In this document: positions 1-44,661 of the stretch, piece after piece
Layout of the letters: the number at the start of each line of letters is the position of its first letter
Numbering within the stretch: the first letter of the stretch is position 1
Sequence record: PP759150
Length of the DNA: 44,661 nucleotides
Source: Escherichia phage HH3
Strand: one strand, 5' to 3'
Notes under the pieces: model-generated
The model's database searches: none
Told to the model about the DNA's origin: nothing
Seen by the model: the letters and a program-made list of their open reading frames with translations, nothing else
Position numbers and translations under genes: made by a program

Positions 1-59
1 AATCCGGGATTGCATAATACACGGCAGCGGGGTGCGGATTGCGGTCGTCGATGAACTAG

Positions 60-190
60 GCAACCAATGCGAGTTGCAGAATGGTGGGTGAGAAATGCAG
101 TTTGCGGACACAGCAGATAGCGATCGACTTTTTCATGCGCGTGATTAATATTGGTTGCATTCGTGCCCGCACCCTGCTAGATTGGTTGCA
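60..190. promoter_or_regulatory. Cluster of three copies of the 9-mer TGCAACCAA / TTGGTTGCA upstream of the first plus-strand ORF
   Basis: gcaaccaa at 60-67, ttggttgca at 151-159 and 182-190; the last is followed by caccaacacgagg and the ATG at 212. Confidence 0.5.
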
Positions 191-211
191 CACCAACACG
201 AGGACTGAGCG

Positions 212-16682: not shown

Positions 16683-17013
16683 TGGAGCGGGACAGGCGGG
16701 ACGTCCCGCTTTGTCCCGATCTGTCCCGCCCTCTAAAAACTGCATACCTATTCAGTTTTACTGCATAACCTGAAAGCGGGACGGCGGGACGTCCCGATCT
16801 GCCCCACCCCCCCAAAATGTGAATGGTTATGCAGTTTTCGTGCATAAAACAAACGGGACAAAAAGCGGGACAGAATGGGGCGGGACAAAGCGGGACGTCC
16901 CGCCGTCCCGCTCAGTGCTGCCGCGGGTTTCAGCCGATCGGGACAGGCGGGACAAAGCCCAGTCTTTCAGACTAGACGGGGGTCATTGGCCCCCCTCGTC
17001 TGAGACTGCATAA
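16683..17013. repeat. Repeat-dense non-coding element, copy A: about 17 CGGGAC(A) units in both orientations, three GCGGGACGTCCCGC palindromes, CTGCATAA repeats, terminal long hairpin (16960-17008)
   Basis: Read directly; last 187 bp (16827-17013) are a diverged copy of 44475-44661. Confidence 0.85.
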
Positions 17014-17077
17014 GATTTGTTTTAAATTCGCTGATACAATAACCCACGGCAACTGCATAAAAAGGGGGGACTGCATA

Positions 17078-28980: not shown

Positions 28981-28984
28981 ATAA

Positions 28985-30133: not shown

Positions 30134-30191
30134 AGTATTACCCTTTTTTTTTAGCGAGGGGGCGGTATTGCCCCCGACACGTTTACTATAG

Positions 30192-30672: not shown

Positions 30673-30893
30673 TTCAATTCCTCAATAAGGGTGTATCGGG
30701 CGCTGCGCGCGGTTAAGGAGTTGCACACGAAATGGCAACGCCGAGTCATGACAAGCCAACCGGTGAGGTCAAGGCCCAGGATGTATTCGGGGCGAGACGC
30801 GCGCACCACACGATTGCGTCGCGGGTCGATGTTATAGTCTCTTAGCATTTGGTCTACGACCGCGGGGTCGCGGTCAACGATTAAGATATTCAT
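30669..30893 (-). CDS. hypothetical protein (74 aa)
   Basis: ORF, ATGA coupling with the HAD gene. Confidence 0.4.
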   Translation of the reverse strand: MNILIVDRDPAVVDQMLRDYNIDPRRNRVVRASRPEYILGLDLTGWLVMTRRCHFVCNSLTARSARYTLIEELK

Positions 30894-31359
30894 GTAACTC
30901 ACTCTCGCTCATTATTTCAATTTGTGCGCTGCCGATGGGCGGCGCTTCGTCAAATATTATTAATTGCTGGCACTTGTTATTGCTCGGACCGACTTCGCCG
31001 GTGGCGGCGTGAATGAATCTAATCCGCCAGTCCAGAAGAATTATCATATTGGCGGTATTCCGGGCCAGCTTCGCCCACTTAGTCGACGTGTCCTGATTCA
31101 GTAGCATGACGGTCCGGCGTCCGTGCGCTGCGCACTCGACCCACGGCAGCGGATCGGAATACGGCGGATTGCACCACTTCCACCCTTTCAACTCTGCCCA
31201 GTCCACATCAAGCGCGCTGTGCTCTGCCGTGAAGTAACGCGGTAGAAGGTGGTTGGCGTCGCTTGCCGCCATATCGTAACGGAATCGGTATTTCCGACGA
31301 AGCGGTTTAAATAACGCTGGCGGCGTGCGCCAGCTATCTTTTTGCTCATTCTTCGTCAT
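30874..31359 (-). CDS. DNA N6-adenine methyltransferase (phage Dam-type), 161 aa
   Basis: Catalytic motif NPPY in WKWCNPPYSDPLPW; N-terminal WRTPPALF pattern typical of small phage Dam enzymes. Confidence 0.8.
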   Translation of the reverse strand: MTKNEQKDSWRTPPALFKPLRRKYRFRYDMAASDANHLLPRYFTAEHSALDVDWAELKGWKWCNPPYSDPLPWVECAAHGRRTVMLLNQDTSTKWAKLARNTANMIILLDWRIRFIHAATGEVGPSNNKCQQLIIFDEAPPIGSAQIEIMSESELHEYLNR

Positions 31360-31804
31360 GGTCGGGGGCTATCGCGTACAGGGCGATATTGTTGCCTTTC
31401 TTCAGGACCCGCTGCACGCGCTTTGACTCCTCGGCGCTCATAGGGCGACCATGAAAATAGCCATTTGTGGGATTGCGCCACGCCACAAGCACCAGATCTT
31501 TACGGTCGATCTTAGACTGGCTACCCTTCGGACGCACGTACTCCTCGGCCCGTTTGCAATGCTCGCGCAGACCTTCGGCAGTGATGCGGTTTAGCGAGAC
31601 GGTGGTGGTGTATCCGGTGCGCTGCATAATACCCATCAATTTGAAAAGCAGTTCGAAGCGCTCCTCTAGCTCCTTGCGCATCTTTTCCTCGCCTTCATAG
31701 CTCGCCAGGTAGGTATCCGCCAACGCGTTCGCCCGTTCGGCTTGCTCGCGGGCTTCGAGGCATTGCGCGGCCCAGTAATCTTTTTCTTCTTGTAAAATTT
31801 TCAT
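31346..31804 (-). CDS. hypothetical protein (152 aa)
   Basis: ORF in replication block. Confidence 0.5.
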   Translation of the reverse strand: MKILQEEKDYWAAQCLEAREQAERANALADTYLASYEGEEKMRKELEERFELLFKLMGIMQRTGYTTTVSLNRITAEGLREHCKRAEEYVRPKGSQSKIDRKDLVLVAWRNPTNGYFHGRPMSAEESKRVQRVLKKGNNIALYAIAPDHDEE

Positions 31805-32047
31805 TTATTTAATCTCCGTAGTGCGAATCTCTTTGCGTGGGATAAATTTGCCGTCCATCTCCACCCAACAGACTCCGTATCGCCATTGGGTGTTACGACC
31901 TGTTTGCTCGGCGTACACGGTCTTGCATCCGTAGCGTTCCGTGTAGTAAATAGCTGCGGTAGGTACGCAAACACAAACGGCAATCATGAGGGTGAGTATC
32001 ACCCAAAATCTAAGGTCGCCGTCGTAGTCAAAAAATAATGATTTCAT
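31805..32047 (-). CDS. small membrane protein (80 aa)
   Basis: RBS ggagac; hydrophobic segment FWVILTLMIAVCVCVPTAAIYY. Confidence 0.5.
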   Translation of the reverse strand: MKSLFFDYDGDLRFWVILTLMIAVCVCVPTAAIYYTERYGCKTVYAEQTGRNTQWRYGVCWVEMDGKFIPRKEIRTTEIK

Positions 32048-32065
32048 CGTTATGTCTCCAGGTAT

Positions 32066-32091
32066 TAAAAAGGGCGTCCAACCGGACACCC
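32066..32091 (-). terminator. rho-independent terminator (minus strand)
   Basis: Minus-sense gggtgtcc-ggtt-ggacgccc followed by TTTTT; 9-mer motif at 32101-32109 immediately upstream. Confidence 0.6.
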
Positions 32092-32110
32092 TCAATATAA
32101 TGCAACCAAT

Positions 32111-32434
32111 TTACGCATAAAAGTTAGGGTCGCGCGCTACGTCTACCAGATACAGGTTACTAATGCGGTTGCCGTAGTGGCCTGGTGTGCGCTGACGGCA
32201 CACTACGGCATAGCCTGGAGGGATTGTATTGCCAGTCTCAATAATCCACGCCACGCGTGCGCCAGACAGCGTCTTACCGTTGTATTCGATACGTGTTCCG
32301 CCATCGGCAGTGTTAAGGTTGCCAATCTTGCAGCCTGTGGACTTCAGGCGAATGACGCCGGTCTTGCTGTCGTATGAAAAAAGCTGATTGGTCATTGCCA
32401 CTGAAAAGTCGATGGCGTCGAATGTAGTATTCAT
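32111..32434 (-). CDS. HNH_3-like small protein (107 aa), possibly degenerate homing-endonuclease-like
   Basis: Pattern YNGKTLSGARVAWIIETGNTIPPGYAV...PGHYGNRISNLYLV resembles HNH_3 endonucleases but the canonical DH-NG core is altered. Confidence 0.45.
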   Translation of the reverse strand: MNTTFDAIDFSVAMTNQLFSYDSKTGVIRLKSTGCKIGNLNTADGGTRIEYNGKTLSGARVAWIIETGNTIPPGYAVVCRQRTPGHYGNRISNLYLVDVARDPNFYA

Positions 32435-33141
32435 TTTAAATTTTCCTCGTTAACCGCTATCGCGAAGCCGCGCGGGGTGAGTGAGCGGATTAATTTTGTA
32501 CGAGCGGATTTACCACCGAGGCGACTATACTGTTTCGAGTACCCTTTTTCAACGAAAACAGGTTTCTTCTCTGGCATACGGAAGCCGTTGCCGGTCCATA
32601 AGCAGGTCAGCTTCGGATATGAATCGCGGGCGTTGATGTATTCAGGGAATAACGGGTGTACGTCATCCTCTGGCAAATAGCCGCCATACTCCCACGGGTC
32701 AAACGAGTGGTCCGGCTTACGCCATTGAGTGGAGAGCACGCTGCGCGGATTCTCAATCATATATGGCACTTCGAAGAAATCGCCCAGGTAAGCGGCGATC
32801 TTCGCGGTGCGCACCGCCTTAAGCTGGAAGGCAGGGTCGCGGGCGCGTTTGCGCGGGAAAGCTGGCGCGCCGCTCACCGCCAGATCAGTACACGGCGGGA
32901 ATGCATAGATAATATCCGGCGTGCCGAAGTCGCCATTCATCGCGCGGTCCACGAAGTCCAGGTCAATAAACTCATTGCGATATCGGATACCGCGACCATA
33001 GATACGGTAATCAAGGTAAGACCCGTGATCGGCTTCGGAGTAGTTGAAGCAATAACACTTATGCCCCATCTCGGCAGCACGCTCAATCATCAAGCCGCTG
33101 CCGTCAAACAATGACCAGATTGTCATTTTAGCAATAGTCAT
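32431..33141 (-). CDS. compact DNA C5-cytosine methyltransferase-like protein (236 aa) with variant motifs
   Basis: Motifs in C5-MTase order: I SLFDGSG, IV FPPCTD (PC-T instead of PC-Q), VI ENP (instead of ENV), VIII-like QWRKP; about 100 aa shorter than typical C5 MTases. Confidence 0.55.
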   Translation of the reverse strand: MTIAKMTIWSLFDGSGLMIERAAEMGHKCYCFNYSEADHGSYLDYRIYGRGIRYRNEFIDLDFVDRAMNGDFGTPDIIYAFPPCTDLAVSGAPAFPRKRARDPAFQLKAVRTAKIAAYLGDFFEVPYMIENPRSVLSTQWRKPDHSFDPWEYGGYLPEDDVHPLFPEYINARDSYPKLTCLWTGNGFRMPEKKPVFVEKGYSKQYSRLGGKSARTKLIRSLTPRGFAIAVNEENLK

Positions 33142-34562
33142 TTGCGCGCCTTTTTAGCTTTCATGTACTCCATCAAGTCGTCCTGTATATCTCGCTTACT
33201 GTCGCGACGCTCGGCGACCAGTTCGTCCAGTGTCCCGCGCGCCTGGATAATATAGACGAATACTGGACGGGGGTGTCCGGCTTGCATCTGGCGAACCGGC
33301 CCGATACGCTCCACGATCTGCGAAAAGTGCTCAAAGTTCCAGGTGTCTGAGAAGATAGCAAGGTGGTGTCCGCCGTCCTGCAGGTTGAGGCCGTGGCCCG
33401 CCGATGCCGGGTGCGCAAACATGATGGGGATCTCGCCCCTGTTCCACGCTTCCATATCCTTATTGCCCTGCTTGCCCTTGCCCAACGCAACGCCGTGCGG
33501 GAATTTCTTCTTGAGACGCGCCAGATCATGCTTGTACTGGTACGCGACGAGCAACGGTGCGCCGTTCAACTCCTCCACGATACTTTCCAGCGCGTCCAGT
33601 TTAGCGTCGTGAATTTTCACCCATTCGTCGGTCCGTTCGCCGTCTTCGTCGACCTTATACACGGCCCCGGAAGCAAGCTGAAGGCACTTAATGGTCTTCG
33701 AAGCAGCGTTCGCCGCCTCCACCGTTCCGCTTTCCAGTTCGGCAAATAGCTCCGCTTCGAACTGGTCATAAATCTTGCGGGCTTTCTTCGGCAGGTCCAC
33801 TACAACCGGCGTATAGATTGGCTTGTCACATCCGAAGTATTCAGCCGCATCAACGGTGAGCGACACGTCGGACAGGCGTTGTTGTATTTCTTTCTCGGAG
33901 TTCTTAAGCGGGGCGTGCTGCATAGAAAAGCTGCCAGGCTTAACAGGCTTGCTAATAAACCAGCGATCCGTGAATGCCTTATAACTACTGCCGAGACGTT
34001 CGCCGCCATCGACAAACCACGTCTGACCCCACAGGTCTTTCAGTCCGTTTGGTGCGGGTGTGCCGGTGAGGTTAATCCATCGCTTGACGTGCTTATGGGC
34101 AATCGCCGCCAGTGCGCGGGCGCGCTTACTCCCCTGCTTGCTTCTATAGCCTTTCAGCTTAGTGGATTCATCGGCAACAACGACCGTAAAGGGCCACGCA
34201 TCGCCGTAATAGTCAACCAGCCACTCAACTACATCATAGTTAACACAAACCACGTTAGCGTCGCTCTCGAGAGCAGCAATGCGGTCCTTCTCTGGTCCTG
34301 TGCCGTCTACTACCAGCAGGGCGGGGAAGCGCCATTTCTCCTGCTCCGGGGGCCATGTACCGGACGCAACGCGCAGCGGGGCCAGCACCAGTACGCGGTC
34401 CTCCTGGTTGGACAGGATACCAGTCTGGAACATTTTATTCAGTGCCCACATGGTCGCGCCAGTTTTACCCGACCCCATTGTCGCCCATATATTGCATCGC
34501 TTATGCTTGAGGATGAACGCGGTTATCAACTTCTGATATTCGCGACGTCGGAAACGTGCCAT
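33138..34562 (-). CDS. SNF2/DEAD-like superfamily 2 helicase (about 474 aa; start at ATG 34562)
   Basis: Walker A MGSGKTGAT, DExx-like VVADEST, C-terminal helicase domain; track ORF over-extended to 34652. Confidence 0.75.
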   Translation of the reverse strand: MARFRRREYQKLITAFILKHKRCNIWATMGSGKTGATMWALNKMFQTGILSNQEDRVLVLAPLRVASGTWPPEQEKWRFPALLVVDGTGPEKDRIAALESDANVVCVNYDVVEWLVDYYGDAWPFTVVVADESTKLKGYRSKQGSKRARALAAIAHKHVKRWINLTGTPAPNGLKDLWGQTWFVDGGERLGSSYKAFTDRWFISKPVKPGSFSMQHAPLKNSEKEIQQRLSDVSLTVDAAEYFGCDKPIYTPVVVDLPKKARKIYDQFEAELFAELESGTVEAANAASKTIKCLQLASGAVYKVDEDGERTDEWVKIHDAKLDALESIVEELNGAPLLVAYQYKHDLARLKKKFPHGVALGKGKQGNKDMEAWNRGEIPIMFAHPASAGHGLNLQDGGHHLAIFSDTWNFEHFSQIVERIGPVRQMQAGHPRPVFVYIIQARGTLDELVAERRDSKRDIQDDLMEYMKAKKARK

Positions 34563-34566
34563 ATCT

Positions 34567-34785
34567 TTATTCCGCCTTTTTCCAGACTTCTGTCTCACTG
34601 TTCCAGTTCCTTTTTGTGGCGTCGTAGTTGGTGCGGTGACCGATGTGCACACCCGTCGCCCGGAAGCTCTTAAATTTTTGCCAGCACACCGTTAACGGCA
34701 GCGGGTTATTCATGCCTGCGATAAACCATACGCGATCGCCTGGTTTGCATTCGCCCAGTGTGGTGAGTCGATAATGTTCTTTCAT
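34567..34785 (-). CDS. hypothetical protein (72 aa)
   Basis: RBS gggaga 9 nt upstream of ATG 34785. Confidence 0.4.
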   Translation of the reverse strand: MKEHYRLTTLGECKPGDRVWFIAGMNNPLPLTVCWQKFKSFRATGVHIGHRTNYDATKRNWNSETEVWKKAE

Positions 34786-34796
34786 CGTCATGTCTC

Positions 34797-34821
34797 CCAA
34801 AAATGGCGGGACAAGCCCGCC
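34797..34821 (-). terminator. hairpin GGCGGGACAAGCCCGCC with T-run on the minus strand
   Basis: Contains the same GCGGGACA unit as the iteron elements. Confidence 0.5.
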
Positions 34822-34828
34822 GTATTAA

Positions 34829-35002
34829 TTATTTTTGCTCTGCGCGGTAGCGGCGCTGCCGTTCGCGCTCTTTCTTATTGCGGCACGATTTGCACTCGGC
34901 CCGATACCCGTCTGGACTGCGCGCAGTCTTTCCGGTGTATTTGTGGAACTGGGAAAGCGGTTTAACGCAACCGCAATTACTGCAGCGTTTTTCTTCAATC
35001 AT
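34829..35002 (-). CDS. small zinc-ribbon protein (57 aa)
   Basis: CSNCGC ... CKSC four-Cys arrangement; RBS gagga. Confidence 0.5.
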   Translation of the reverse strand: MIEEKRCSNCGCVKPLSQFHKYTGKTARSPDGYRAECKSCRNKKERERQRRYRAEQK

Positions 35003-35042
35003 TTCTAAAATCCTCGATAGTGCTAACCTGCTCACTATACTG

Positions 35043-35321
35043 TTAAGCGACCAATTCAGCAACCAATAAATCACAGTCGGCTATGTTGTCTATGACGCGA
35101 ACGTCCGCACCGCGGCGGGCCATTCGCTCATGTTCTCGTACCTGGTGCGGCTTCGGTTTGCCACCGGGGCGCTTCACCTCGACGAACACTATTCTGCCGT
35201 TGATGATGATTATCAGGTCTGGCGCACCTGCTCGCCCCTCCCACGCCACTTTGCGGCAGAATCCGCCGACGGCTTTCACCCGTCTCATCAAGTGACTTTG
35301 AATCTTGCCTTCGGGTGTCAT
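35043..35321 (-). CDS. VRR-NUC domain nuclease (92 aa)
   Basis: GAPDLIII ... VFVEVKRPGGKPKPHQ motif; start overlaps the Pol I stop. Confidence 0.7.
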   Translation of the reverse strand: MTPEGKIQSHLMRRVKAVGGFCRKVAWEGRAGAPDLIIIINGRIVFVEVKRPGGKPKPHQVREHERMARRGADVRVIDNIADCDLLVAELVA

Positions 35322-37612
35322 TATTTTCTGTACCTGTACATAATGTCGCCTTCCGCGGCAAGCGGGAAGCCTTTCGCCCAAACCGGCAGGTCGCACATCA
35401 GCGCGCACAACTCCTCAGTTGTGTAGTCGTCGGTATCCGGCACTTCGGTTATCAGTTCATCGTGTACGGACAGTACGATCTCATATCCCGCAGCTTCAAC
35501 GCCAGGCATGGACCATGCGAGGATATCGCGACACAGCGCCTGCACGATGTTCTCTGTCAGTTTGCCGCCGTAGGTGTACTGGGATCCCCACTGGCGCGTC
35601 GTCTGATTCTCACCCTGGTATTTAATGCGGGTGCTGGTGCGTTTCTTGCCGGTGTCGTCGTCGATCTCGGTCGTCACTGACAGCGCAATGCCTGGATAAC
35701 TCATAATACGCCCAGACGGCAACTCAATTTTCAACCACCACCCCGCGGCGTTCGGGTCGTCGCGTTCCTCGTCGAAGGTTGGGTCATGCTTCGCCTTCGT
35801 GCGGACTATCTTGAGCGCTTTCTTTCCATCCGGGCGAACGTTCGCTCCAGCCCAGTACGCTTTGCCCGGATTGCGGATTGCACACAACACCGCGTCCTCA
35901 AGCTCGGCCCAAAAAGCTACCGTCTTCGGGTGAGCCTCGCGCCACATGCGTTTAATCGCATCACACGTAAGCCATACGTTTTTCGGCAGTATGTAAGTCG
36001 GACGCTCGTCCTTCTTGCCCGGCTTCGGCGGGCGCTTAGCTTCGTTAATGCGGGCATACTCATAACCACGTTTCGCCGCGGCCCAAATGTGATCGGGGAA
36101 TGTGCCCTTCATCACGTCAGCCATCGCATAAAGGTCGAGGCCCAGGTTTTTAGCGAACTGCAAGAACGCCGCCACGCCGCCGCCATAGCCTAGTCCCAAC
36201 TCACACGCCTTACCGATCTGGCGTAAGTCTTTGCGGTTGGCTTTAATGTATTCCGGATCGAGGCCGAACATCTTACCGGCAGTCTCACAATAAATATCGC
36301 GACCGGCCCTAAACACCATTAGCGCGGTTTTCTCTCCAGCGATCCAGGCGAGGCCACGCCCTTCCACGTTGGAGTAGTCCGCCACGACAAACTTCTTACC
36401 CTTCGCCGGAATAATGCACCCGCGAACAGTCGAGGCTGTTAGCTTCGATATGTCATACGCCCAGTGCGCTGTCCCGCGTAACAGGGAGTTGATGCCGTTG
36501 GTGAGCATGTGCGACCGGACCCAAAAAGAAACGTCGCTCTCGCCTTCACGGCGTTTAATCTTCCCTTCGTGGTCATCACTATACTCGCCGCGTGCCAGGT
36601 TTTGCGGCTGGAAGCCTTTACCAGCCCAGCGCAGCGTGCGCTTTGCCCCACCATACTGAAGACAACCACGGCGGCGACCATCGGAAGACAGGCCATTTAC
36701 GAGCGGATTGTACTTAGTCGATGCCGTTGATGATGCCCCGAGGCGCATCTCGATAAGCACTTTGCCTTCGTCTGGGAAGTCCGGGTCTTCCAGCAGGTCG
36801 TTAAGTGTGGACTTCTGCGCGTTGTGGATCGTGAACGCAGGCGCGAGGTCGCGCAGCGCGGGCAAGAAGTCATTGCCGGTCAGCTTACCGCCGAAGCGCT
36901 CCCAGGCTTCTTCCTTCAATTCTTCTTTATGCGCCTGTACCGCTTTGATCGCGGCGTTCGCCAGATCAACGTCCACGTAGAAGCCGCGGTCGTTGATCAA
37001 CTGGTCAATAAGCAGGATTTCGTCTTCCTTCGGCGTGTTGCCCCAGTCCGGTATGCGCCAATAGACTTCCCTCATAGCGATGATATCCAACGCGGCATAG
37101 CGAAGGAATTTAGCCCACTCCTCTGGGTGCGTCTCGCGCGTGTAGCGGCGGATTTTGTAGGTCTTAGGGGTAGGCTTACAGAATCGTTTGATCAGCGCCT
37201 TGCCCGCCTTATCCTTCGCGTGCTCTGCATCAACGCCCAACACCTGACACTGCATATCGAGGCCGCCCGGCAACGCGTGCCGAAAGGCCATAATCATGGT
37301 GTCTTCGATCTGGCACACGGGGAGGTCAATGCCCCACTTCTCGCGAATAACCAGGCGGTCAAACAGGAGGCCGTTAGCCATCACGATTTTTGCTTTCTTG
37401 CGGGATACCCGGCGGAGCGCCTTGCGCAGTTCACGCGGCATTGTGGGGGACTCGGTGCAATCCCACGTTTGCACGCGGCCCTCGTCGATGGCGTATGTGC
37501 AAATCATAATCTCAGTAGTTGGGTGTTCCGCGTAGGCGTATGCGCCCACTTTCTTCAGATCCACCCCGCTAAATGTCTCGGTATCGAGAAACAGGCGTTC
37601 AAAGTCTTTCAT
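35321..37612 (-). CDS. DNA polymerase I (family A) with 3'-5' exonuclease domain, 763 aa
   Basis: Exo I motif FLDTET near N-terminus; C-terminal motif C region SVHDELI; size. Confidence 0.9.
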   Translation of the reverse strand: MKDFERLFLDTETFSGVDLKKVGAYAYAEHPTTEIMICTYAIDEGRVQTWDCTESPTMPRELRKALRRVSRKKAKIVMANGLLFDRLVIREKWGIDLPVCQIEDTMIMAFRHALPGGLDMQCQVLGVDAEHAKDKAGKALIKRFCKPTPKTYKIRRYTRETHPEEWAKFLRYAALDIIAMREVYWRIPDWGNTPKEDEILLIDQLINDRGFYVDVDLANAAIKAVQAHKEELKEEAWERFGGKLTGNDFLPALRDLAPAFTIHNAQKSTLNDLLEDPDFPDEGKVLIEMRLGASSTASTKYNPLVNGLSSDGRRRGCLQYGGAKRTLRWAGKGFQPQNLARGEYSDDHEGKIKRREGESDVSFWVRSHMLTNGINSLLRGTAHWAYDISKLTASTVRGCIIPAKGKKFVVADYSNVEGRGLAWIAGEKTALMVFRAGRDIYCETAGKMFGLDPEYIKANRKDLRQIGKACELGLGYGGGVAAFLQFAKNLGLDLYAMADVMKGTFPDHIWAAAKRGYEYARINEAKRPPKPGKKDERPTYILPKNVWLTCDAIKRMWREAHPKTVAFWAELEDAVLCAIRNPGKAYWAGANVRPDGKKALKIVRTKAKHDPTFDEERDDPNAAGWWLKIELPSGRIMSYPGIALSVTTEIDDDTGKKRTSTRIKYQGENQTTRQWGSQYTYGGKLTENIVQALCRDILAWSMPGVEAAGYEIVLSVHDELITEVPDTDDYTTEELCALMCDLPVWAKGFPLAAEGDIMYRYRK

Positions 37613-37779
37613 TGCTTAATCCTCACCACGGCGTCAGCACTGCCGATCATGGAGAAGATACCGTCGGAAAGGGTAATCTCCTCGCCGTTGTTGCGAATCT
37701 CGGCAACTGTGAAATATTCGCCCAGCATTTTGGACCATACTCGCATTCCGACTTTTACTTCGCTGGCTTTAATGCGCAT
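37609..37779 (-). CDS. small hypothetical protein (56 aa) coupled to Pol I
   Basis: Hand-translated; stop overlaps Pol I start (ATGA); RBS agga. Confidence 0.4.
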   Translation of the reverse strand: MRIKASEVKVGMRVWSKMLGEYFTVAEIRNNGEEITLSDGIFSMIGSADAVVRIKQ

Positions 37780-37795
37780 TTTTCATTGTCCTATT

Positions 37796-37817
37796 AAAAA
37801 GCCCGCATTAAGCGGGC
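37796..37817 (-). terminator. rho-independent terminator (minus strand)
   Basis: gcccgc-attaa-gcgggc with TTTTT on the minus strand. Confidence 0.65.
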
Positions 37818-37837
37818 TTGAATAGTGGGCTTTGCCC

Positions 37838-38626
37838 TTAACGGCGACGTTTACGCGGTGCTTTGTCTTCGTCGTCGTCGTCGTCGTCGTCGTCGTCCTC
37901 ATCTTCGTCATCGCGTGGCTTACGACGTTTGCGAGGTGTTTCATCATCGTCGTCATCGCGGCGCTTGGACTTTTTGGACTTGCGCGGCTTGTCGTCTTCA
38001 TCATCGTCATCGCGACGTTTTGACTTTTTGGACTTGCGCGGGCTTTCATCTTCGTCATCGTCGCCCAGGTCCTCGTCCGAGCAAGAAGACCCGCCACCGC
38101 CGAAGGCTTCACCGTCATCACGGAAGCGTAACCCCAGCAAGCCCGCACCGAGTCCCTTGCCGTTGGTATTGTTCCACGCCCAAATATCCAGGGACACGTT
38201 GCAATAACAACCGGAGTAGATCTCCTGGCCTTCAATCTCGTCGCCTTCTACGGTCAGACCCTGTTCGGTCTGCTTCTCGCCGAGTGACGTTTGAATGATC
38301 GGCTGTTTGAACGATTTGGCGTTGATGTACAACATGCCTTCGAATTCTTCGGTTACTTCGTCGCGCTCGTCACCGTCGCGAACTGCGCATTCCTTAGAAT
38401 CCTGGGCGTAGTGGCGGTCCATCCACTTATCAGCATTCTTCTCGGATTTCAGCTTGTCGGTGAGCACTGCGCGCGCTGCCGCTTCCACTTTGTCCACCTG
38501 CGGATCTTCTTTATCAAGAAGAATCACTGCACGGTATGCCGGTTTTTGTCCATCCTGTTTAGGGGTATCGCGCTCCCAAATTTTAAGGAAACATACGCGC
38601 ACATTTTTCAGGTTGACTTTAGCCAT
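37838..38626 (-). CDS. putative ssDNA-binding protein (gp2.5-like / DUF2815-like) with C-terminal poly-Asp and Lys/Arg-rich tandem repeats
   Basis: N-terminus MAKVNLKNVRVCF; position between Cas4-like nuclease and Pol I (a module order I recall as common in phages); start at ATG 38626 with RBS gaggaa. Confidence 0.5.
   Translation of the reverse strand: MAKVNLKNVRVCFLKIWERDTPKQDGQKPAYRAVILLDKEDPQVDKVEAAARAVLTDKLKSEKNADKWMDRHYAQDSKECAVRDGDERDEVTEEFEGMLYINAKSFKQPIIQTSLGEKQTEQGLTVEGDEIEGQEIYSGCYCNVSLDIWAWNNTNGKGLGAGLLGLRFRDDGEAFGGGGSSCSDEDLGDDDEDESPRKSKKSKRRDDDDEDDKPRKSKKSKRRDDDDDETPRKRRKPRDDEDEDDDDDDDDDEDKAPRKRRR
37857..38070. repeat. In-frame tandem repeat (about 57-bp unit x2 plus GAC/GTC triplet run) inside the SSB-like gene
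   Basis: cgtcgtcgtcgtc run and duplicated ...gactttttggacttgcgcgg... unit. Confidence 0.7.
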
Positions 38627-38716
38627 TTTCCAATTCCTCATTCTCGCATGTATCGGGGTTATTATGAGCCACCCCGTTCGGCTTGGTTGCTAATCTACTT
38701 GGTTGCGCCTGGGTGG

Positions 38717-38959
38717 TCAAGCATTTTCATTAAAAAGATTTCGGGTCACGTAGTTGGTGGCGTTCTCGACCCAGCTTAGCGGCGGGCGTTCGATGTTCTT
38801 TTCCACCCAATAGACGGCAGCTTCGCTATAGCCGTCGTCCAGCCAGCGGGTCGGGTGGCGAATCATCCAGGCCACCATTAACACGCCTTGCACACAATGC
38901 AGGATAAAGCCCAGTGCGCCGAGCAAAAACATCAATAAGATTGCGAATACTTTATTCAT
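38717..38959 (-). CDS. small membrane protein (80 aa)
   Basis: Two hydrophobic segments FAILLMFLLGALGFIL and VLMVAWMI. Confidence 0.5.
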   Translation of the reverse strand: MNKVFAILLMFLLGALGFILHCVQGVLMVAWMIRHPTRWLDDGYSEAAVYWVEKNIERPPLSWVENATNYVTRNLFNENA

Positions 38960-40382
38960 TGCTTAAGTCCTCGTCTGTAGCTTCCGACCACGCAGGGCGC
39001 GGGTCGTCGATTGGTGCTAACACAGGTTTAGCGGGTGCGCGTGTGATTTTAGCACACAGCTTCGCCCACACTTTCGGTTTTTCGTCCTTCAGCACCTTCT
39101 CGGCATCTGTCGGGCTGAGCAATGTTTCTTTGTACATCACATCGCGCTTGATCCGGGCCTTCGTGAATATTTCAATCACTTCGCTCTCGTCCGCCCACTT
39201 ACGGATCCCTTCCTTACCGGCAACCATCTTAAGGCCCAACGATTCGCCATCGCCCGCCATGACCGCCTTGAATACCGCGGATTCGATAGCTTTGATGTGC
39301 TGGCGCATTGCGTCAAGTCCTTCATAAGCCTTGCGCAGTTCCGCCGCGCTCATAGCGCCTGGGGTGGATTCCTTCTTGCCCCGTTTAGCACGTCGGGCAG
39401 CCTTCCGGGCTTCGCGGGCCATATTGCGGTCGTGGTTGGCGCACTCTTCCTCGGTTGCCACGCTCACGTCGTCGCCCAGGTCTTCGTCGGTTGCCGTTGG
39501 TGGCGTCATCGTGTCGATTGCGGCCTTCGCCCGGATGCTGCACTGGTCCGCAAATCTGCACCACTGGCACGCATCGACGCTGGGCCGGAAGTCGGCGCGG
39601 GTTAGTCCCTTCTTGCCGCGGGCGTATGCATCGAGCGCGGCGATAGCACGCTTGGACGCAAACGTCGCGAATATCTCCAGCGCTTCCACTGAGATATCCC
39701 ACTCTGACGCCCCGCCGCAATACGGCTGGAAGATGACCAGGCGCACGGTCGTAATGTCATACATGGTTTGCAGCTTGCGCAGCAGTCCGAGCGCGTACAA
39801 CATAAGCTGTTTGTTTTCTTTCGCCTCGACCTTATGCCGCCCGGTCTTCAGGTCGCCAACAATCAGCATGTACGTGCCATCGGTCTTCTTCGTGACCATG
39901 ACCATATCGGCAGTGCCGAACGTCTTAACCTTGTTACCGTCGATCTCGACTCCTGGGTGGAGGACGCGGGTGAGATCGGCGCGCATCTCAAGCTGGACAA
40001 ACTCCGCCACTTCGAGGAGCGGTCGCCAGTGGTCGATGTACGCGTCGCACTGTTTCACCATATCGTCGTTGACCAGTACGCCGCCTTTCGGTGCTTTCGG
40101 GTGCGCCTTTACTGGCCCCTTGCCTTCATTCTCGACGTAACACCCTTTATACGTCTTTGCTGTTATCAGCTTTTCACCGGCGATAATGCGGTTTAGCACC
40201 ACTTCAGATACGGTGTGCATACTCGTACCATTAATCGCGGCCTGTCCTGATTCGTTCGGGATATCTTTTTCGACCACCAGGGCGGCGGGACACCCCATCC
40301 ATTTTTTAGCACCGGATGGGCCAAGTAATGAGTGTTCCGTATTGCTACCGGATTGCGTTTTACGTTTTGGTTTAATCGCCAT
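38952..40382 (-). CDS. PD-(D/E)xK exonuclease, Cas4/RecB-like (DUF2800-like), 476 aa
   Basis: N-terminal HSLLGPSGAKKWMGCP signature; C-terminal Cys cluster CQWCRFADQC. Confidence 0.65.
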   Translation of the reverse strand: MAIKPKRKTQSGSNTEHSLLGPSGAKKWMGCPAALVVEKDIPNESGQAAINGTSMHTVSEVVLNRIIAGEKLITAKTYKGCYVENEGKGPVKAHPKAPKGGVLVNDDMVKQCDAYIDHWRPLLEVAEFVQLEMRADLTRVLHPGVEIDGNKVKTFGTADMVMVTKKTDGTYMLIVGDLKTGRHKVEAKENKQLMLYALGLLRKLQTMYDITTVRLVIFQPYCGGASEWDISVEALEIFATFASKRAIAALDAYARGKKGLTRADFRPSVDACQWCRFADQCSIRAKAAIDTMTPPTATDEDLGDDVSVATEEECANHDRNMAREARKAARRAKRGKKESTPGAMSAAELRKAYEGLDAMRQHIKAIESAVFKAVMAGDGESLGLKMVAGKEGIRKWADESEVIEIFTKARIKRDVMYKETLLSPTDAEKVLKDEKPKVWAKLCAKITRAPAKPVLAPIDDPRPAWSEATDEDLSNE

Positions 40383-40570
40383 TATTCCACCCTTGAAAAC
40401 TGAGCAATGTAATAGTCATGTTTAACACCGGCCCGCTTCGCGGCTTCGTTCATGGTAGCCGCCAAACCTCTGGCTTGAGTCCAGCAGCAATTCCAGTTCT
40501 GATTCATAACGATTTCTGGTTGCGCATCGCCGGTAATACGGCAGCGAAATAAAACGAAAAATATAGCCAT
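40382..40570 (-). CDS. hypothetical protein (62 aa)
   Basis: RBS gggaga. Confidence 0.4.
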   Translation of the reverse strand: MAIFFVLFRCRITGDAQPEIVMNQNWNCCWTQARGLAATMNEAAKRAGVKHDYYIAQFSRVE

Positions 40571-40822
40571 TTATTTTGTCTCCCAGCGGTCAATTGTTTT
40601 TGCTTCGGATGCAACGGCGAAACGAACATATTCCGGATTTGAATCCGCCCAAATATAAAAGTCTGGATTGGTAAATGTGGTGCGCTTAATTTGCGCGGGG
40701 GTGTTACGGCGTTTATCTATTACGGCAACGCGTGACTGAAAGCTGCCGATACGTTCGAATAGCCAATAATATGGGCGCTGGTCGCGGGAATCCACCGCCT
40801 CGATTAGCGTGAAGCGTGCCAT
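40571..40822 (-). CDS. hypothetical protein (83 aa)
   Basis: RBS gaggacgag; follows terminator. Confidence 0.45.
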   Translation of the reverse strand: MARFTLIEAVDSRDQRPYYWLFERIGSFQSRVAVIDKRRNTPAQIKRTTFTNPDFYIWADSNPEYVRFAVASEAKTIDRWETK

Positions 40823-40833
40823 TGTCTCGTCCT

Positions 40834-40862
40834 CTAAAAAGAGGCCCGCAGATTAGCGGGCC
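40834..40862 (-). terminator. rho-independent terminator (minus strand) after the first early gene
   Basis: ggcccgc-taatct-gcgggcc followed by TCTTTTT on the minus strand. Confidence 0.65.
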
Positions 40863-40870
40863 GTATAATA

Positions 40871-41386
40871 TTAGTCTTCCAGTTCGAAATAGGTTTCTAC
40901 GATTTCTTTAAGTTCTGTGTGGAAGTCCGCCACGTCGTCGTCTTCCAGTTTAGCGATTGATTTGATCTCGAACGATTCCAGCAGGTCGTCGAATTCGTCG
41001 TTCGCATCGTCATCATCACCGCCTGCGATAATCGCGGCATACTGTTTGATCTCGTCGCGCATCTCCGCCAGCGGATCGGCATCTTTCTCACCTTTGCCTT
41101 TCGCTGGTGCTTTTTTACCCTTCGCCGGTTTTTCGTCTTCGGCGTCATCCTCGTCGTCATCATCCTCTACGACTTCTTTTTTGGCCTTACCTTTCGCCGG
41201 GGCTTTTTTGGTTTTCGCTGGTGCTTCGTCTTCAGCGTCGTCATCTTCTACGACTTCTTTTTTGGCCTTAGACGGCTTTTTATCTTCCTGCTTACCAACG
41301 GCAGCGCCAACGGTTTCATAATGTTTAGCGATGATTTCCAGTGCTACTACGCCGCGAGTGATCAGGTTTACGATTTGCTCAAACAT
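40871..41386 (-). CDS. highly acidic early protein with tandem mixed-charge repeats (171 aa), candidate DNA mimic
   Basis: Start ATG 41386 with RBS ggag; repeats EVVEDDDAEDE...PAKGKAKK; first gene downstream of the leftward early promoter. Confidence 0.55.
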   Translation of the reverse strand: MFEQIVNLITRGVVALEIIAKHYETVGAAVGKQEDKKPSKAKKEVVEDDDAEDEAPAKTKKAPAKGKAKKEVVEDDDDEDDAEDEKPAKGKKAPAKGKGEKDADPLAEMRDEIKQYAAIIAGGDDDDANDEFDDLLESFEIKSIAKLEDDDVADFHTELKEIVETYFELED

Positions 41387-41789
41387 GGTATATCTCCGAT
41401 TGGTTAAGTTTAGGTGTCGACAGTTAACTTCGTCGGTGGCCTTAACATAGTGCCTGGTTGCGCGTTCTCCCTTTCGGGTAGTGGACCAGGTTATATAATC
41501 ACGGTTGGGAATCCTGACACTTCGATCCGGCCCCTGCGTTGCCCCTCTCCAGTTTGCGTCCTGCATCCTGTCGACGGGGTGAATAATAGATTGGTTGCAG
41601 GATAGGTGTCAACAACTAATTTCAAAAAAAAAAGCGCCGAAGCAAAATGCGACGGCGCTAACCAATAAGAGACAATGAGACGGGAGTATTATTACACGCG
41701 TGCGCGCCCGTTTCAATATCCCAAAGGATTTGACACCTTGCGGTTTTAGGTGTAGTTTCGTTGGTCATTAACCAACTGGGGGCAGAGCA
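41387..41789. promoter_or_regulatory. Divergent early control region: leftward promoter (TTGACA at 41612-41607, TATTAT at 41589-41584, 9-mer in the spacer), rightward promoter (TTGACA 41730-41735, TAGTTT 41753-41758), GTCGAC-containing inverted repeats
   Basis: Hexamers read directly; region separates divergently transcribed replication genes. Confidence 0.5.
41623..41659 (-). terminator. rho-independent terminator on the minus strand inside the control region
   Basis: agcgccg-13 nt loop-cggcgct followed by ten T on the minus strand. Confidence 0.6.
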
Positions 41790-42119
41790 ATGAATGTAAA
41801 CGACGCAATCGAAATGTTAACGAAGACTGTTAGCAGTGAAACAAGCCGGTCCTGGGCTTATACCGATGCCGTTGGGGCGGTGTTATTTGAGGTCGAGCGC
41901 CTGCGCAGTGTAGAAAAAGAATTACGCGCCAGGCTGGAATTGCTCAACGGTACGGCGGCGAGCAAGCTACAAAAACACAATGAAGAAATGGAAGAATACA
42001 AAAAACAGGTTATCCGTTTACGTGATGAGGGGAAGTCATGGGCAATGATCGCGGAGTTGACAGGAATTAATCAGAGCACCGTGCGATCCTGGGTACGCAA
42101 TAACAAAACTTCTAAGTAA
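41790..42119 (+). CDS. HTH DNA-binding protein (109 aa), candidate transcription regulator
   Basis: C-terminal helix-turn-helix-like WAMIAELTGINQSTVRSW; first gene of the rightward early operon. Confidence 0.55.
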   Translation: MNVNDAIEMLTKTVSSETSRSWAYTDAVGAVLFEVERLRSVEKELRARLELLNGTAASKLQKHNEEMEEYKKQVIRLRDEGKSWAMIAELTGINQSTVRSWVRNNKTSK

Positions 42120-42129
42120 GGCCACGGCA

Positions 42130-44394
42130 ATGAGCTTAATTAAATTCGCTGTAACACGACCCGCTAAAAAAGGCGAAAAAGCCAGGGCGGAAAACTTCCA
42201 GATGACAACTGATGAATTTTTCGAATTTATCAATGACGCGAAAGAAATCTCATCGGTGCACATCAACAAGACCGAGGATAAAGCCGAGTATGCGCGCCGC
42301 AAGCGCAAGGCCGATGGCATCGTGGCATATACCAGTGACGGCCTACGCCGTAAGACCAGCGCGGTGGACCGCTCGATCCTGTTCTTTGATATTGACCGCA
42401 CCGACACTCGCACCTTGCGCCGCTGCCGTAAGGCTTTCATCGACGCGGGCCTGGAACACGTATTCCACACCACAACCGGCGACCGTCACCCACTGAAAGG
42501 CGGCACGCGTTGCGCCCGTTTCCTGGTGTTGACGGACAAGCCTGTCCCGGCGGAAGACCTGGGCCGTGTCCAGTATGCGCTATTACACCAACTTGGTCTG
42601 TCAGATGTGGACTTCGACGATTGCACGAAAGACACAAACCGCCTGATGTACCTGCCGCACCAGCAATCGGTTATTAAGTGCCACTACGGCAAACGTGCCA
42701 ATGTGCGGCGTCTGCTCCGCCTGGCGGACAAGCTGGGGGTGGAGAAAGAGGAAGTACGCCGCGAACTAACCCAGGGCGACGACGAAGTGGCTGACGGCAT
42801 TCTTGATTGGTGCTTTCAGGCTGGATTCGAGCCACTATCGTCCGGGCGTGGCTATGAAGTGCCGTGTCCGAACGAACATCTGCACAGCGGCGAAGGGTCG
42901 ACGGCTATCATGGTCAAGGATGGCGAGATCCGTTTCAAGTGTATGCACACCGGAAACGAGTGTTGCTCGGAACTGAACCGACACCAGCACCTGGCGCTAC
43001 GTCTTATCGGGATCCCGGACCACCTGAACGTCGAGCCACACAATATGTCCCGTAAGCAAATCGCCGCCATCCTGCCAGGTCTGGACGACGAGGAAGTCGA
43101 ATCCTTATATGATCACATTGTTGATGCGGTTGGCGACGGCGAAGAATATGGCGTGTGCACCGATGCGGATCTGGATAACGAGCCGGTTGCGCTGTTCAGT
43201 AAGCACGACCCGATCATCGAAGGTCTGATTAACTTCAAATCGACCTGGTATATGGCGGGCGAGTCGAACATCGGCAAGTCCTTCTATGTGCTGGGGCAGA
43301 TGGGCGCGGTTGCCGCGGGTATCCCGTTTGGCGGTGCGAAGGTCGTCCAGTCTCATTGCTTCTATTTCGACGCGGAAGGCGGCGAAGCCTCCAACCAGCG
43401 CAAAGAAGCATTGCAGATTAAATACGAGCACGACCTCGACAAGCTGCACATTATCGATCTGCAGTCACGCGGATGGGATATCACCAGCAAGTCCGGTTTG
43501 CGCGAAGTTATCAGCTATATCAACCGCACTGCTAACGGCGAGCCGGTCGGCCTGGTGGCGTTCGACTCACTCAACCAGACTGTTGCGCTGCGGTCCGCCG
43601 AGGCTAAACCGTTCGACGAGAACAACGCCAGCGATATGGGTGAAGTAGTCAAAGCGCTGAAAGCCATTGCGGAAAACACGGGCGGCAGTGCGGGCGTCAT
43701 CCACCACCCGGCGAAGGGTGCAAACGGCAGCAGATCCCCGCGTGGGTCCGGTGCGCTTCATGGCGCTGTCGATTCCGCTTTCTTCCTGGAACAGCCGGAC
43801 GACAACCAGCCGGGGCAATTGAACCTTTATCACGAAAAGTCACGTAACGGCATCAAGCAAGCGCCGCGTGGCTTCGTCCTGCTCAAGTGCAAGGTGGCGG
43901 TAGATCTCCGCAAGTCAGAAGCGTTCGCGTCGCACCAGTCCACCAGCACCGGGCCAGACTTCGGTGACGTAGTTGCTGGTTGGGACGTCAAACCAATTGC
44001 GTCCACCCCGCGCGACGAGACTTTATACCTCGTACCGGTCGCCCTGGCACCGTTCGCTATAGAACAGGCGAAGGCCGCAGGAAAAGCCGCAGTTAAGGAA
44101 GAGAACACCGCCGGACCGCGCACCGAAAAAGAGAAAGTGCTTTATGCGGCCCTGGAAAAACTGATGGAAGATAACCCGGACCATACTGGTTTCAGTAAAT
44201 CGGCAATCGTCCGCCAGGCGGGACTCGCAAAGGGTGGCACTTCGACGAAGGCAATAGACGATATGGTCGAGCGCGGCGTGATTGGTTTCTATACAGACCC
44301 GCACACCGGGGCCATATATGGGTCATCGAATTTAGTCATTAAATCGGATATCCCCATTACACTTTCTGCGACCGATGACGACCTGAAAGATTAA
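42130..44394 (+). CDS. primase-helicase (AEP-type primase-like N-terminus, zinc-binding region, P-loop ATPase C-terminus), 754 aa
   Basis: LFFDIDRTD acidic motif, Cys cluster CPNEHLHSGEGS...CMHTGNECC, Walker A GESNIGKS, Walker B LVAFDSLNQ. Confidence 0.7.
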   Translation: MSLIKFAVTRPAKKGEKARAENFQMTTDEFFEFINDAKEISSVHINKTEDKAEYARRKRKADGIVAYTSDGLRRKTSAVDRSILFFDIDRTDTRTLRRCRKAFIDAGLEHVFHTTTGDRHPLKGGTRCARFLVLTDKPVPAEDLGRVQYALLHQLGLSDVDFDDCTKDTNRLMYLPHQQSVIKCHYGKRANVRRLLRLADKLGVEKEEVRRELTQGDDEVADGILDWCFQAGFEPLSSGRGYEVPCPNEHLHSGEGSTAIMVKDGEIRFKCMHTGNECCSELNRHQHLALRLIGIPDHLNVEPHNMSRKQIAAILPGLDDEEVESLYDHIVDAVGDGEEYGVCTDADLDNEPVALFSKHDPIIEGLINFKSTWYMAGESNIGKSFYVLGQMGAVAAGIPFGGAKVVQSHCFYFDAEGGEASNQRKEALQIKYEHDLDKLHIIDLQSRGWDITSKSGLREVISYINRTANGEPVGLVAFDSLNQTVALRSAEAKPFDENNASDMGEVVKALKAIAENTGGSAGVIHHPAKGANGSRSPRGSGALHGAVDSAFFLEQPDDNQPGQLNLYHEKSRNGIKQAPRGFVLLKCKVAVDLRKSEAFASHQSTSTGPDFGDVVAGWDVKPIASTPRDETLYLVPVALAPFAIEQAKAAGKAAVKEENTAGPRTEKEKVLYAALEKLMEDNPDHTGFSKSAIVRQAGLAKGGTSTKAIDDMVERGVIGFYTDPHTGAIYGSSNLVIKSDIPITLSATDDDLKD

Positions 44395-44407
44395 ATTTTG
44401 CGCGCAT

Positions 44408-44468
44408 TGGTTGCCATTTTGAGTGTTTTTAGCCGGTCGCATTGGTTGCCGTGTAGTGTAAATATAAT
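44408..44468 (+). promoter_or_regulatory. Two direct CATTGGTTGCC copies followed by a consensus TATAAT hexamer
   Basis: ttggttgcc at 44408-44416 and 44442-44450, tataat at 44463-44468. Confidence 0.45.
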
Positions 44469-44474
44469 GCATAG

Positions 44475-44661
44475 TTATGCAATAAAACTGCATAAAGTAG
44501 GCGGGACAAAAAGCGGGACAGACCAGGGGCGGGACAAAGCGGGACAGCACCCCGTCCCGCCCCGGATGACGCGGCCTGGAGAGGAGCGGGACAGCGGGAC
44601 AGCACCCCAGTCTTTCAGACTAGACGGGGGTCAACGGCCCCCCTCGTCTGAGACTGCATAA
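44475..44661. repeat. Repeat element copy B: six or more CGGGACA units plus terminal hairpin (44608-44656) ending in CTGCATAA at the window edge
   Basis: Aligns with 16827-17013 over 187 bp; hairpin arms identical and only the loop differs by two bases. Confidence 0.85.

Follow-up and report, generated by a model that had tools for sequence, protein, structure and literature searches.

Described iteron origins and the locus at the window edge

Satellite phage P4 reportedly carries iterons of ~8 bp, in both orientations, in two clusters (ori and crr), details that are said to go back to Ziegelin and Lanka and to Flensburg and Calendar. The iterons of the IncQ plasmid RSF1010 are 20-bp repeats. 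In P4, the winged helix of the alpha protein binds the origin repeats (PMC4234260). In RSF1010, the iterons are bound, RepA unwinds the DNA, and a dedicated primase acts on the stem-loops, priming 3' of the hairpin (PMC4234260). In pRN1, an origin with a required stem-loop is found immediately downstream of orf904 (primase-polymerase, helicase and winged helix), which is preceded by the repressor gene orf56 (PMC4234260).

We compared these systems with a locus at the edge of the window, i.e. the whole 44,661-bp stretch of DNA that was analysed. Matches to the window were found in 158 phage records, and in 150 of these they extend over at least 80% of a 3-kb query. Nearly all the records are from Dhillonvirus (HK578-like) phages of Escherichia, Shigella or Sodalis, whose genomes are 43–46 kb long. 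The window therefore represents a complete genome, with an overall GC content of 54.5%. Its layout is as follows:

212 to ~28,980, plus strand: block of small genes and lysis, terminase, head and tail genes
16683..17077, plus strand: copy A, the longer duplicate of the repeat module, between the tail-chaperone gene (DUF1799, ends at 16682) and the tape-measure gene (starts at 17078)
~29,000 to 41,566, minus strand: replication genes
41790-44394, plus strand: short operon, 109-aa HTH gene and then 754-aa helicase-primase gene
41790..42119, plus strand: 109-aa HTH protein (Pfam HTH_23/Sigma70_r4_2/HTH_28), directly upstream of the helicase-primase gene
42130..44394, plus strand: helicase-primase gene (754 aa) with primase-like N-terminus, Cys/His cluster, RepA-like helicase and C-terminal winged helix

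The AF2 model of the helicase-primase contains an N-terminal alpha/beta domain, the Cys/His cluster, a RecA-fold helicase (residues ~360-590) and a C-terminal helix-helix-helix-strand-strand domain, which includes the predicted winged helix (residues ~664-738, nt 44119-44343). The helicase is AAA_25 (Pfam)/RepA-like, and its core is structurally closest to RSF1010 RepA. The primase assignment comes from weak PHROG matches only. No Toprim or SF3 domain was found in the protein, Pfam at E ≤ 10 returned nothing usable for its N- and C-terminal parts, and a profile search of PDB sequences with the replication protein returned nothing significant (RepA had an E-value of 0.094). A match to BurrH in the PDB-sequence search was discarded as a spurious repeat match. 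The 109-aa HTH protein is probably a transcription regulator.

Like P4 alpha, the helicase-primase combines primase, hexameric helicase and C-terminal winged helix in one polypeptide, and as in P4 ori/crr, iterons of ~8 bp are found in direct and inverted orientation in two separated clusters of the same iteron per genome (copy A and, beside the helicase-primase gene, copy B); relatives with a single cluster exist (FSL SP-031). P4 alpha has a Toprim primase and an SF3 helicase, whereas the helicase here is AAA_25/RepA-like, and only the domain order is analogous. The locus also resembles RSF1010 oriV in having iterons, an AT-rich segment, a GC-rich segment and a stem-loop, together with a RepA-type hexameric helicase; RSF1010 is primed 3' of the hairpin, and here the conserved CACGGCAGC is found directly 3' of the hairpin. 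Unlike in RSF1010, where they are split among three proteins (RepA, RepB' and RepC), the functions are fused in one protein here (no RepC-like gene was identified near the element), each element has one hairpin as compared to two ssi sites on opposite strands primed by RepB', and the iterons are 8 bp long at an irregular spacing of 8–16 bp. As in pRN1, a gene for a small DNA-binding protein is followed by a primase-helicase-winged-helix gene and then by a candidate origin with a stem-loop, but pRN1 is archaeal, lacks iterons and has an SF3 helicase, and the likeness is one of layout. With neither SF3 helicase, Toprim primase nor RepC, and with a different number of hairpins, the locus thus fails on homology as a member of these systems, and the resemblance is mechanistic only.

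Organization of copy B and its junction with position 1

An earlier note on this DNA had placed the second copy of a repeated element at the very end of the window, which we could confirm: copy B (44455-44661) stops at the final base, and the 3' end of the window reads ...CCCCCCTCGTCTGAGACTGCATAA (the last bases are also given as ...GAGACTGCATAA), while its first bases are AATCCGGGATTGCATAATAC. Copies A and B form a diverged direct repeat whose offset stays at 27648-27649 nt throughout (the last ~200 nt of the window repeat 16,8xx-17,013), with identities of 81%, 78% and 89% over segments of 95, 55 and 35 nt, respectively. The intergenic region from the stop of the helicase-primase gene through the junction to the gene at 212 contains the following parts:

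44395..44454, plus strand: proximal intergenic part with two ATTGGTTGC motifs (44406-44414 and 44441-44449), a separate regulator-type motif
44455..44499, plus strand: AT-rich box segment (45 nt), candidate DNA-unwinding element, sequence TATAATGCATAGTTATGCAATAAAACTGCATAAAG, with boxes TAGTTATGCA and CTGCATAAA
44500..44561, plus strand: iteron block 1, direct GCGGGACA at 44501, 44513, 44529 and 44539, then inverted GTCCCGCC at 44554-44561
44562..44585, plus strand: spacer between the iteron blocks (~24 nt), different in sequence between copies A and B
44586..44601, plus strand: iteron block 2, two adjoining direct GCGGGACA at 44586 and 44594
44608..44656, no strand: GC-rich imperfect hairpin/palindrome, CAGTCT TTC AGACT AGACGGGGG loop CCCCCCTCGTCT GAGACTG
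44654..44661, plus strand: terminal CTGCATAA box, the last bases of the window and the 3' limit of the A/B homology
1..211, plus strand: distal intergenic part with TGCATAA at 11-17, conserved ACACGGCAGC at 19-28 and ATTGGTTGC sites

In total, copy B contains six direct iterons and one inverted GCGGGACA. Over the whole window, GCGGGACA is found 15 times as compared to 2.1 expected (6 in copy B and 5 in copy A), CTGCATAA 11 times as compared to 1.15 expected (7 of the 11 inside the two copies), and ATTGGTTGC 12 times as compared to 0.47 expected, the last being scattered over intergenic regions genome-wide. Given this strong over-representation, the copy B/copy A observation is real and not due to chance. 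An iteron origin is expected to have at least three short non-coding repeats far above chance and an adjoining AT-rich, easily melted segment, and both are found here; positions 44459-44498 (22.5% GC) form the joint second most AT-rich 40-nt stretch in the genome.

Treated as DNA, the copy B hairpin has a predicted energy of -13.3 kcal/mol (z -4.1), and none of 200 shuffles was equally stable. It is possibly a structural element of an origin, such as a priming or loading site, and it could also be a weak terminator of the helicase-primase transcript. A scan for intrinsic terminators called none in either copy, and the hairpin is not directly followed by a T-run: the sequence after it is GCATAAAATCC in copy B, and in copy A a T-rich stretch starts ~10 nt later. 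Lacking a T-tract, the copy B hairpin is therefore not a canonical terminator. Neither copy, nor the start of the window, gave a canonical element when scanned for consensus promoters and terminators. In the distal part, ATTGGTTGC sites are found at 60-68 (minus strand), 150-158 and 181-189, and two of them overlap a sigma-70-like TTGCAT(154-159)-17-TAGATT(177-182) upstream of the gene at 212, which was recognized by eye and not called by the consensus scan. GC and AT skew over the whole window reflect gene orientation only, without an independent origin signal (the cumulative GC-skew minimum is near 41-42 kb, at the gene-orientation switch, and not at 44.5 kb), and Rfam covariance models had zero matches at gathering score in the whole window.

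Conservation of the two copies in Dhillonviruses

The repeat regions themselves are already known from the record of Sodalis phage SO-1 (NC_013600.1), of which the earlier note was unaware; repeat regions A and B are annotated there with a 'possible ...' function. Region A of SO-1 is directly upstream of the tape-measure gene, the same position as copy A, and the 480-nt region B extends from the helicase-primase stop to the next gene, the same position as copy B plus the window start (according to the record, the two regions resemble each other and consist of direct, inverted and palindromic repeats). We found no publication testing or analysing the SO-1 regions A/B, and no study of these elements in the literature on Dhillonvirus or Guernseyvirinae origins, promoters or iterons.

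The hairpin sequence is found twice per contig in ~16 Dhillonvirus contigs of IMG/VR. An alignment of 16 distinct B copies and 15 distinct A copies showed little or no variation across the genus in the GGGAC cores, the boxes (including TAGTTATGCA and TGCATAAA upstream) or the stems of the hairpin, and ACGGCAGC, on the window-start side, is invariant in the B copies. Spacers and loops vary in the same alignments, with 1-nt indels, which indicates that the region is non-coding and selected as a set of binding sites. Since the hairpin stems never vary in Dhillonviruses, covariation gives no evidence for or against their pairing, and the only informative comparison is the replacement of the hairpin sequence between lineages. 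As for the TGCATAA boxes that the earlier note had pointed out on both sides of the junction, both are present here (the one near the window start at 11-17), but the pair is not a conserved feature of the genus, as the boxes vary in the B copies: the terminal box is TGCATAA in 10/16 and TGAATAA in 5/16, and the box at 11-17 reads TGCAAAA in 12/16. In most A copies the terminal box is TGAATAA.

Copy A contains 11 GGGAC and 6 GTCCC cores, including three GGCGGGACGTCCCG(C/A) palindromes, with a box segment at ~16814-16853, a hairpin at ~16960-17008 and CACGGCAAC at 17045-17053; its equivalent of the AT-rich segment has 30% GC. At 16675-16682 a CTGCATAA box overlaps the stop codon, and at 17071-17078 another overlaps the start of the tape-measure gene. 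Copy A is found in nearly all Dhillonvirus records (mostly two matching places per record) and, among the genomes examined, only in Dhillonviruses: the whole genome of Cornellvirus FSL SP-031 has no iteron cluster before the tape-measure gene, and searches of distant relatives with exact hairpin patterns gave one match per contig only. We note that the inside of a tail operon is an odd place for an origin. Copy A may be a second origin, or may act in cis as an auxiliary site, as crr does for P4.

The window edge as a probable linearisation point

The earlier note had joined copy B to the first 210 bp as a single region, should the genome be circular or circularly permuted, and one continuous intergenic region is supported: a 260-nt query across the junction is unbroken in 156 of the 158 records, a 761-nt query across 44661->1 is likewise continuous in relatives, and SO-1 has the entire interval annotated as its 480-nt region B. 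Its other proposal, a genome terminus at 44661/1, is not supported, as no listed relative ends here, and both the terminase families and the published packaging data fit headful packaging. With the junction continuous in these 156 records, related genomes do not share fixed ends at this position. The terminase is not of a cos or DTR type; TerL belongs to Terminase_6N/6C (Pfam), a family typical of headful packagers, and TerS (terS at 4840-5490, ~4.8 kb from copy B) has weak matches to the P22 gp3 (GP3_package) and Sf6_terminase models, below the Pfam cut-offs.

The published evidence includes PhageTerm or restriction data, and most analyses of the genus indicate headful or permuted genomes. 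Headful packaging is reported for Opt-212 (PMC9022532) and, with a pac site, for UDS3lw (PMC13348001), and four of five bovine isolates are 'circular permutated', with fixed termini reported for one Dhillonvirus (PMC8407724). TerL of Dhillonvirus K19 groups with that of the headful phage P1, and a sister Jerseyvirus has a circular-like restriction pattern (PMC10783031). The sole cos claim is a predicted 10-nt 5' cos end, ATCTTAAGGG, for phage EE09 (PMC10673088). The window does not contain this exact sequence; allowing one mismatch gives two matches (20322 and 39226), which are at chance level and far from region B.

The final base of the window is also the final base of a 26-nt exact repeat (16988-17013 = 44636-44661), which, together with a neighbouring 28-nt one, is the longest exact repeat in the genome, simple triplet runs aside. 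A cut exactly at the end of the 26-nt A/B repeat suggests an assembly or editing artefact, and the simplest reading of this non-random cut is an assembly break at the repeat boundary or a deliberate choice of start point. Position 44661/1 is most likely an arbitrary linearisation point of a circularly permuted genome and not a physical DNA end. For a repeat that ends at a sequence edge, an artefact of assembly or linearisation is the likelier explanation than a genome terminus.

The same architecture in Guernseyvirinae-like phages

A search for homologues of the helicase-primase found ~330. Those with 37–48% identity are found in Guernseyvirinae-like phages, and we examined relatives including Cornellvirus FSL SP-031, Shemara; Pantoea AH01; Hafnia TS33; Enterobacter phiEap-2; and several metagenomic contigs. 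The majority of them have an element of the same order directly 3' of the gene: two (G)TGAATAGTTATGCA boxes homologous to those of the AT-rich segment, iterons that are first direct and then inverted, a spacer followed by two further iterons, a hairpin, CACGGCA(G/A)C, and the sigma-70 promoter of the next operon (a clear TTGACA-17-TATTGT in the distant relatives). The iteron differs per lineage (GGGGAGA, AGGGATA, TCCGACA, GGGGAT(G/A), CGGACAA and ACTCGCAA), and the hairpin is found at the same place with a different sequence. At the metagenomic loci L145 and L146 the layout is looser, with iteron arrays of their own. Downstream of four other homologues (L049, L050, L054 and L056) there are terminators and reverse genes instead of an array; the layout is thus widespread without being universal. 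In the whole genome of FSL SP-031 the single iteron cluster adjoins the helicase-primase gene, and the position next to this gene is therefore ancestral. At the position of the small HTH gene, the Guernseyvirinae-like phages encode a non-homologous Cro-type HTH protein, whereas the Dhillonvirus protein is HTH_23.

Candidate iteron-binding domain

Using pairwise comparisons among 13 genomes, we examined the identity of the winged helix relative to that of the helicase-primase core. Dividing winged-helix identity by core identity gives a ratio of 0.89 where the two genomes share an iteron (n=6 pairs) and of 0.60 where their iterons differ (n=72 pairs). For example, L052 and AH01, whose iterons differ, share 96% identity over residues 1-640 and 47% in the winged helix, and the window and L046, which have iterons in common, share 85% in the winged helix, 83% in the core and 60–75% in the N-terminal third. 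Phages with the same iterons also share the sequence of the predicted recognition helix, e.g. GGGN(K/S)RRR in AH01 and phiEap-2. The small upstream HTH protein does not follow the iterons: despite different iterons, AH01 and L052 share 99% identity in this protein and phiEap-2 and L058 share 93%, and AH01 and phiEap-2 share only 51% despite the same iterons.

Since the iterons track the winged helix and not the small HTH protein, the C-terminal winged helix of the helicase-primase is the best candidate for the iteron-binding initiator domain, a proposal made from sequence comparison. The small upstream HTH protein was rejected as the iteron binder for the relatives, and the 109-aa protein is, by analogy, not favoured as the binder in Dhillonviruses. 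Another DNA-binding protein could bind the iterons, and because the winged-helix coding sequence adjoins the iterons, recombination of the two as a cassette could give the same pattern without recognition.

Alternative explanations

A transcriptional control region is unlikely in our view. The iterons would then be operators or activator sites, the hairpin would terminate or attenuate transcripts, and the two copies would gate the genes from 212 and the tape-measure and distal tail genes from 17078. Such a role fits the position of both copies directly upstream of plus-strand gene blocks, the HTH/sigma-70 region-4-like protein encoded nearby, the CTGCATAA boxes that overlap the stop codon at 16675-16682 and the tape-measure start, and the hairpin at the end of the helicase-primase transcription unit. 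However, a canonical promoter or terminator is called in neither copy, the operon after copy B has its own promoter-like site ~150 nt further on with a different motif (ATTGGTTGC), and the distant relatives have their clear TTGACA-17-TATTGT at the corresponding place. The iterons also track the winged helix of the replication protein instead of the neighbouring HTH regulator, the Cornellvirus genome has no copy before the tape-measure gene, and no Rfam RNA family matches. For copy A in particular, this explanation is less unlikely. It is quite unlikely that the iterons bind the replication protein for titration, autoregulation or handcuffing, like P1 incA or plasmid control iterons, with the origin found elsewhere (e.g. 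in the divergent region 41566-41790). The covariation of winged helix and iterons fits this equally well, two separated arrays per genome resemble control-iteron layouts, and the cumulative GC-skew minimum is nearer to that region than to copy B, but this minimum merely coincides with the gene-orientation switch, in every lineage the iterons come with an AT-rich segment and a hairpin, as in an origin, and a lytic phage has little obvious need for copy-number control.

The pac sites of some phages, e.g. P1, hold arrays of short repeats, and the last base of the window coincides with the 3' limit of the element, as it would if the edge were a real DNA end, i.e. a pac site bound by the small terminase or a cos or terminal-repeat end. 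The fixed termini reported for one Dhillonvirus (PMC8407724) and the predicted cos ends (PMC10673088) also agree with this explanation. We nevertheless consider it very improbable: 156 of 158 records run through the junction, the terminase families fit headful packaging and most analyses find permuted genomes, and the predicted cos end of EE09 is not present as an exact sequence in the window, with its two 1-mismatch matches far from region B. Moreover, the element is tied to the helicase-primase gene in all lineages, ~4.8 kb away from terS, in or near which a pac site is usually found, it covaries with the replication protein, and two copies 27.6 kb apart would yield two packaging series. Hardly credible is a selfish or functionless repeat (a MITE-like insertion or a recombination scar), as might be suggested by a duplicated non-coding segment in an unusual place between the tail-chaperone and tape-measure genes. 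The motif cores are invariant while the spacers drift, the architecture is kept beside the same gene at ~40% helicase-primase identity with lineage-specific iterons, and neither terminal inverted repeats nor target duplications were seen at copies A and B.

Proposed origin and mechanism

The earlier note had suggested an origin next to the primase gene, and the comparative evidence (the architecture kept beside a homologous gene, the lineage-specific iterons and the winged-helix covariation) supports this by inference. Our preferred reading, which we hold to be rather probable, is that the window is an arbitrarily linearised headful Dhillonvirus genome whose replication origin consists of copy B plus the first tens of window bases. 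The winged-helix domains of the helicase-primase would bind the GCGGGACA iterons (six direct and one inverted), and multimerisation at the iterons would load the RepA-like hexameric helicase and open the adjoining AT-rich box segment. Structural, loading or priming signals for the primase domain may be provided by the GC-rich hairpin and by the conserved CACGGCAGC directly after it. Both stay constant while the iterons change, which suggests that they are read by a conserved part of the machinery. After priming, the phage's own DNA polymerase would take over.

A wider reading, which we find rather doubtful, is that Dhillonviruses and Guernseyvirinae-like siphophages share an undescribed modular origin, in which an exchangeable winged-helix/iteron cassette would set replicon specificity. 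The hairpin and CACGGCAGC would then be an ssi-type priming signal, giving IncQ-like initiation in a tailed phage, and copy A would have been added as a crr-like second copy, either required in cis or linking replication with the expression of late genes. As a kind of element, an iteron origin beside an initiator gene is ordinary. Mildly unusual are the duplicate inside the tail operon and the clear exchange of winged-helix/iteron cassettes among relatives.

Few therapeutic or biocontrol coliphages and Salmonella phages are isolated as often as Dhillonviruses and Jersey-like phages, and we found no paper that defines the replication origin of either. A defined origin with its cognate winged-helix/iteron pair would guide genome engineering (which sequences to spare, and how to design replicons or phagemids) and might account for replication specificity or for interference when relatives co-infect. 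Record conventions and mis-annotations would be put right as well. In existing records, the HTH protein is mislabelled as 'transposase', 'resolvase' or 'nuclease inhibitor gamma', and small ORFs are called across the iterons.

Apparent exchange of binding domain and iterons

Helicase-primases of two relatives, locus L052 and Pantoea phage AH01 (L147), share 96% identity over aa 1–640 and only 47% in the predicted C-terminal winged helix, and the iteron arrays 3' of their genes are also unlike each other. Judged from these sequences, a DNA-binding domain and its binding sites have apparently been swapped between phages as a cassette. The phage phiEap-2 locus (L149) and L058 are given as a second pair for such a swap.

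Dispersed motif and copy A

The motif ATTGGTTGC occurs 12 times in the window (0.47 expected), with most of the occurrences found at gene boundaries:

60-68, 700-708, 11091-11099, 26634-26642, 32102-32110, 35059-35067: ATTGGTTGC, minus strand
150-158, 181-189, 30204-30212, 41590-41598, 44406-44414, 44441-44449: ATTGGTTGC, other sites

Two of the copies sit on the promoter-like TTGCAT-17-TAGATT that precedes the gene at 212, overlapping its -35 and its -10/+1, an arrangement that resembles the operator of a phage regulator. Cornellvirus and other relatives carry a related motif (TGTTGGCTG/CAGCCAAC) flanking the iteron element, and eight copies of GCAACCAAC lie 3' of the helicase-primase gene in locus L057.

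Tail-chaperone and tape-measure genes are as a rule adjacent or overlapping. In the window, one CTGCATAA (16675-16682) overlaps the tail-chaperone (DUF1799) stop codon and another (17071-17078) the tape-measure ATG, which places copy A, the duplicate element, as an insertion flush between these two genes.

Linearisation points and packaging calls

Two Guernseyvirinae records, phiEap-2 (KT287080.2) and AH01 (MZ501269.1), are also linearised no more than ~600–900 nt downstream of the helicase-primase gene, so cutting near this intergenic region seems to be a common depositor or assembler habit, not a biological end. Dhillonvirus packaging calls, all based on PhageTerm, conflict in the literature: a 5' cos was predicted for one phage (PMC10673088), several calls are headful or permuted (PMC9022532, PMC8407724, PMC13348001), and one gives 'fixed' termini (PMC8407724). 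Ends at region B, the element 3' of the helicase-primase gene, are reported in none of these four papers.

Annotation in relatives

The Sodalis phage SO-1 record already has both elements as repeat_region entries, with functions worded as 'possible ...':

NC_013600.1 11214-11597: 'region A' (L033)
NC_013600.1 40178-40657: 'region B' (L032)

Many relatives have small 'hypothetical protein' ORFs annotated over the iteron/hairpin region (counterpart of window 44395-44661 plus 1-211), e.g. PV637039.1 40315-40449. The ORFs there in the window are:

44398-44661, plus strand
44332-44550, minus strand

Single-base indels among relatives argue that these are not genes. GenBank labels for homologues of the 109-aa HTH_23/sigma-70 region-4-like protein (41790-42119) vary between records ('transposase', 'putative resolvase', 'DNA recombination nuclease inhibitor gamma'); they are mutually inconsistent and probably wrong.

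Other repeats

Three near-identical terminator-like hairpins, AAGGGGCC...GGCCCCTTTTT, were detected both as a family of direct repeats and as inverted repeats of one another:

9916-9940: end of a plus-strand gene block
15964-15988: end of a plus-strand gene block
28984-29008: end of a plus-strand gene block

Runs of GAC/GAT-type triplets, with 54- and 81-nt tandem-like repeats, lie at 37866-38077 and 40996-41270, within two ORFs:

37838-38641, minus strand
40871-41566, minus strand

The stretches that they encode in these two early-region proteins are repetitive and highly acidic, and the only match for the proteins is a weak one to BUD22.
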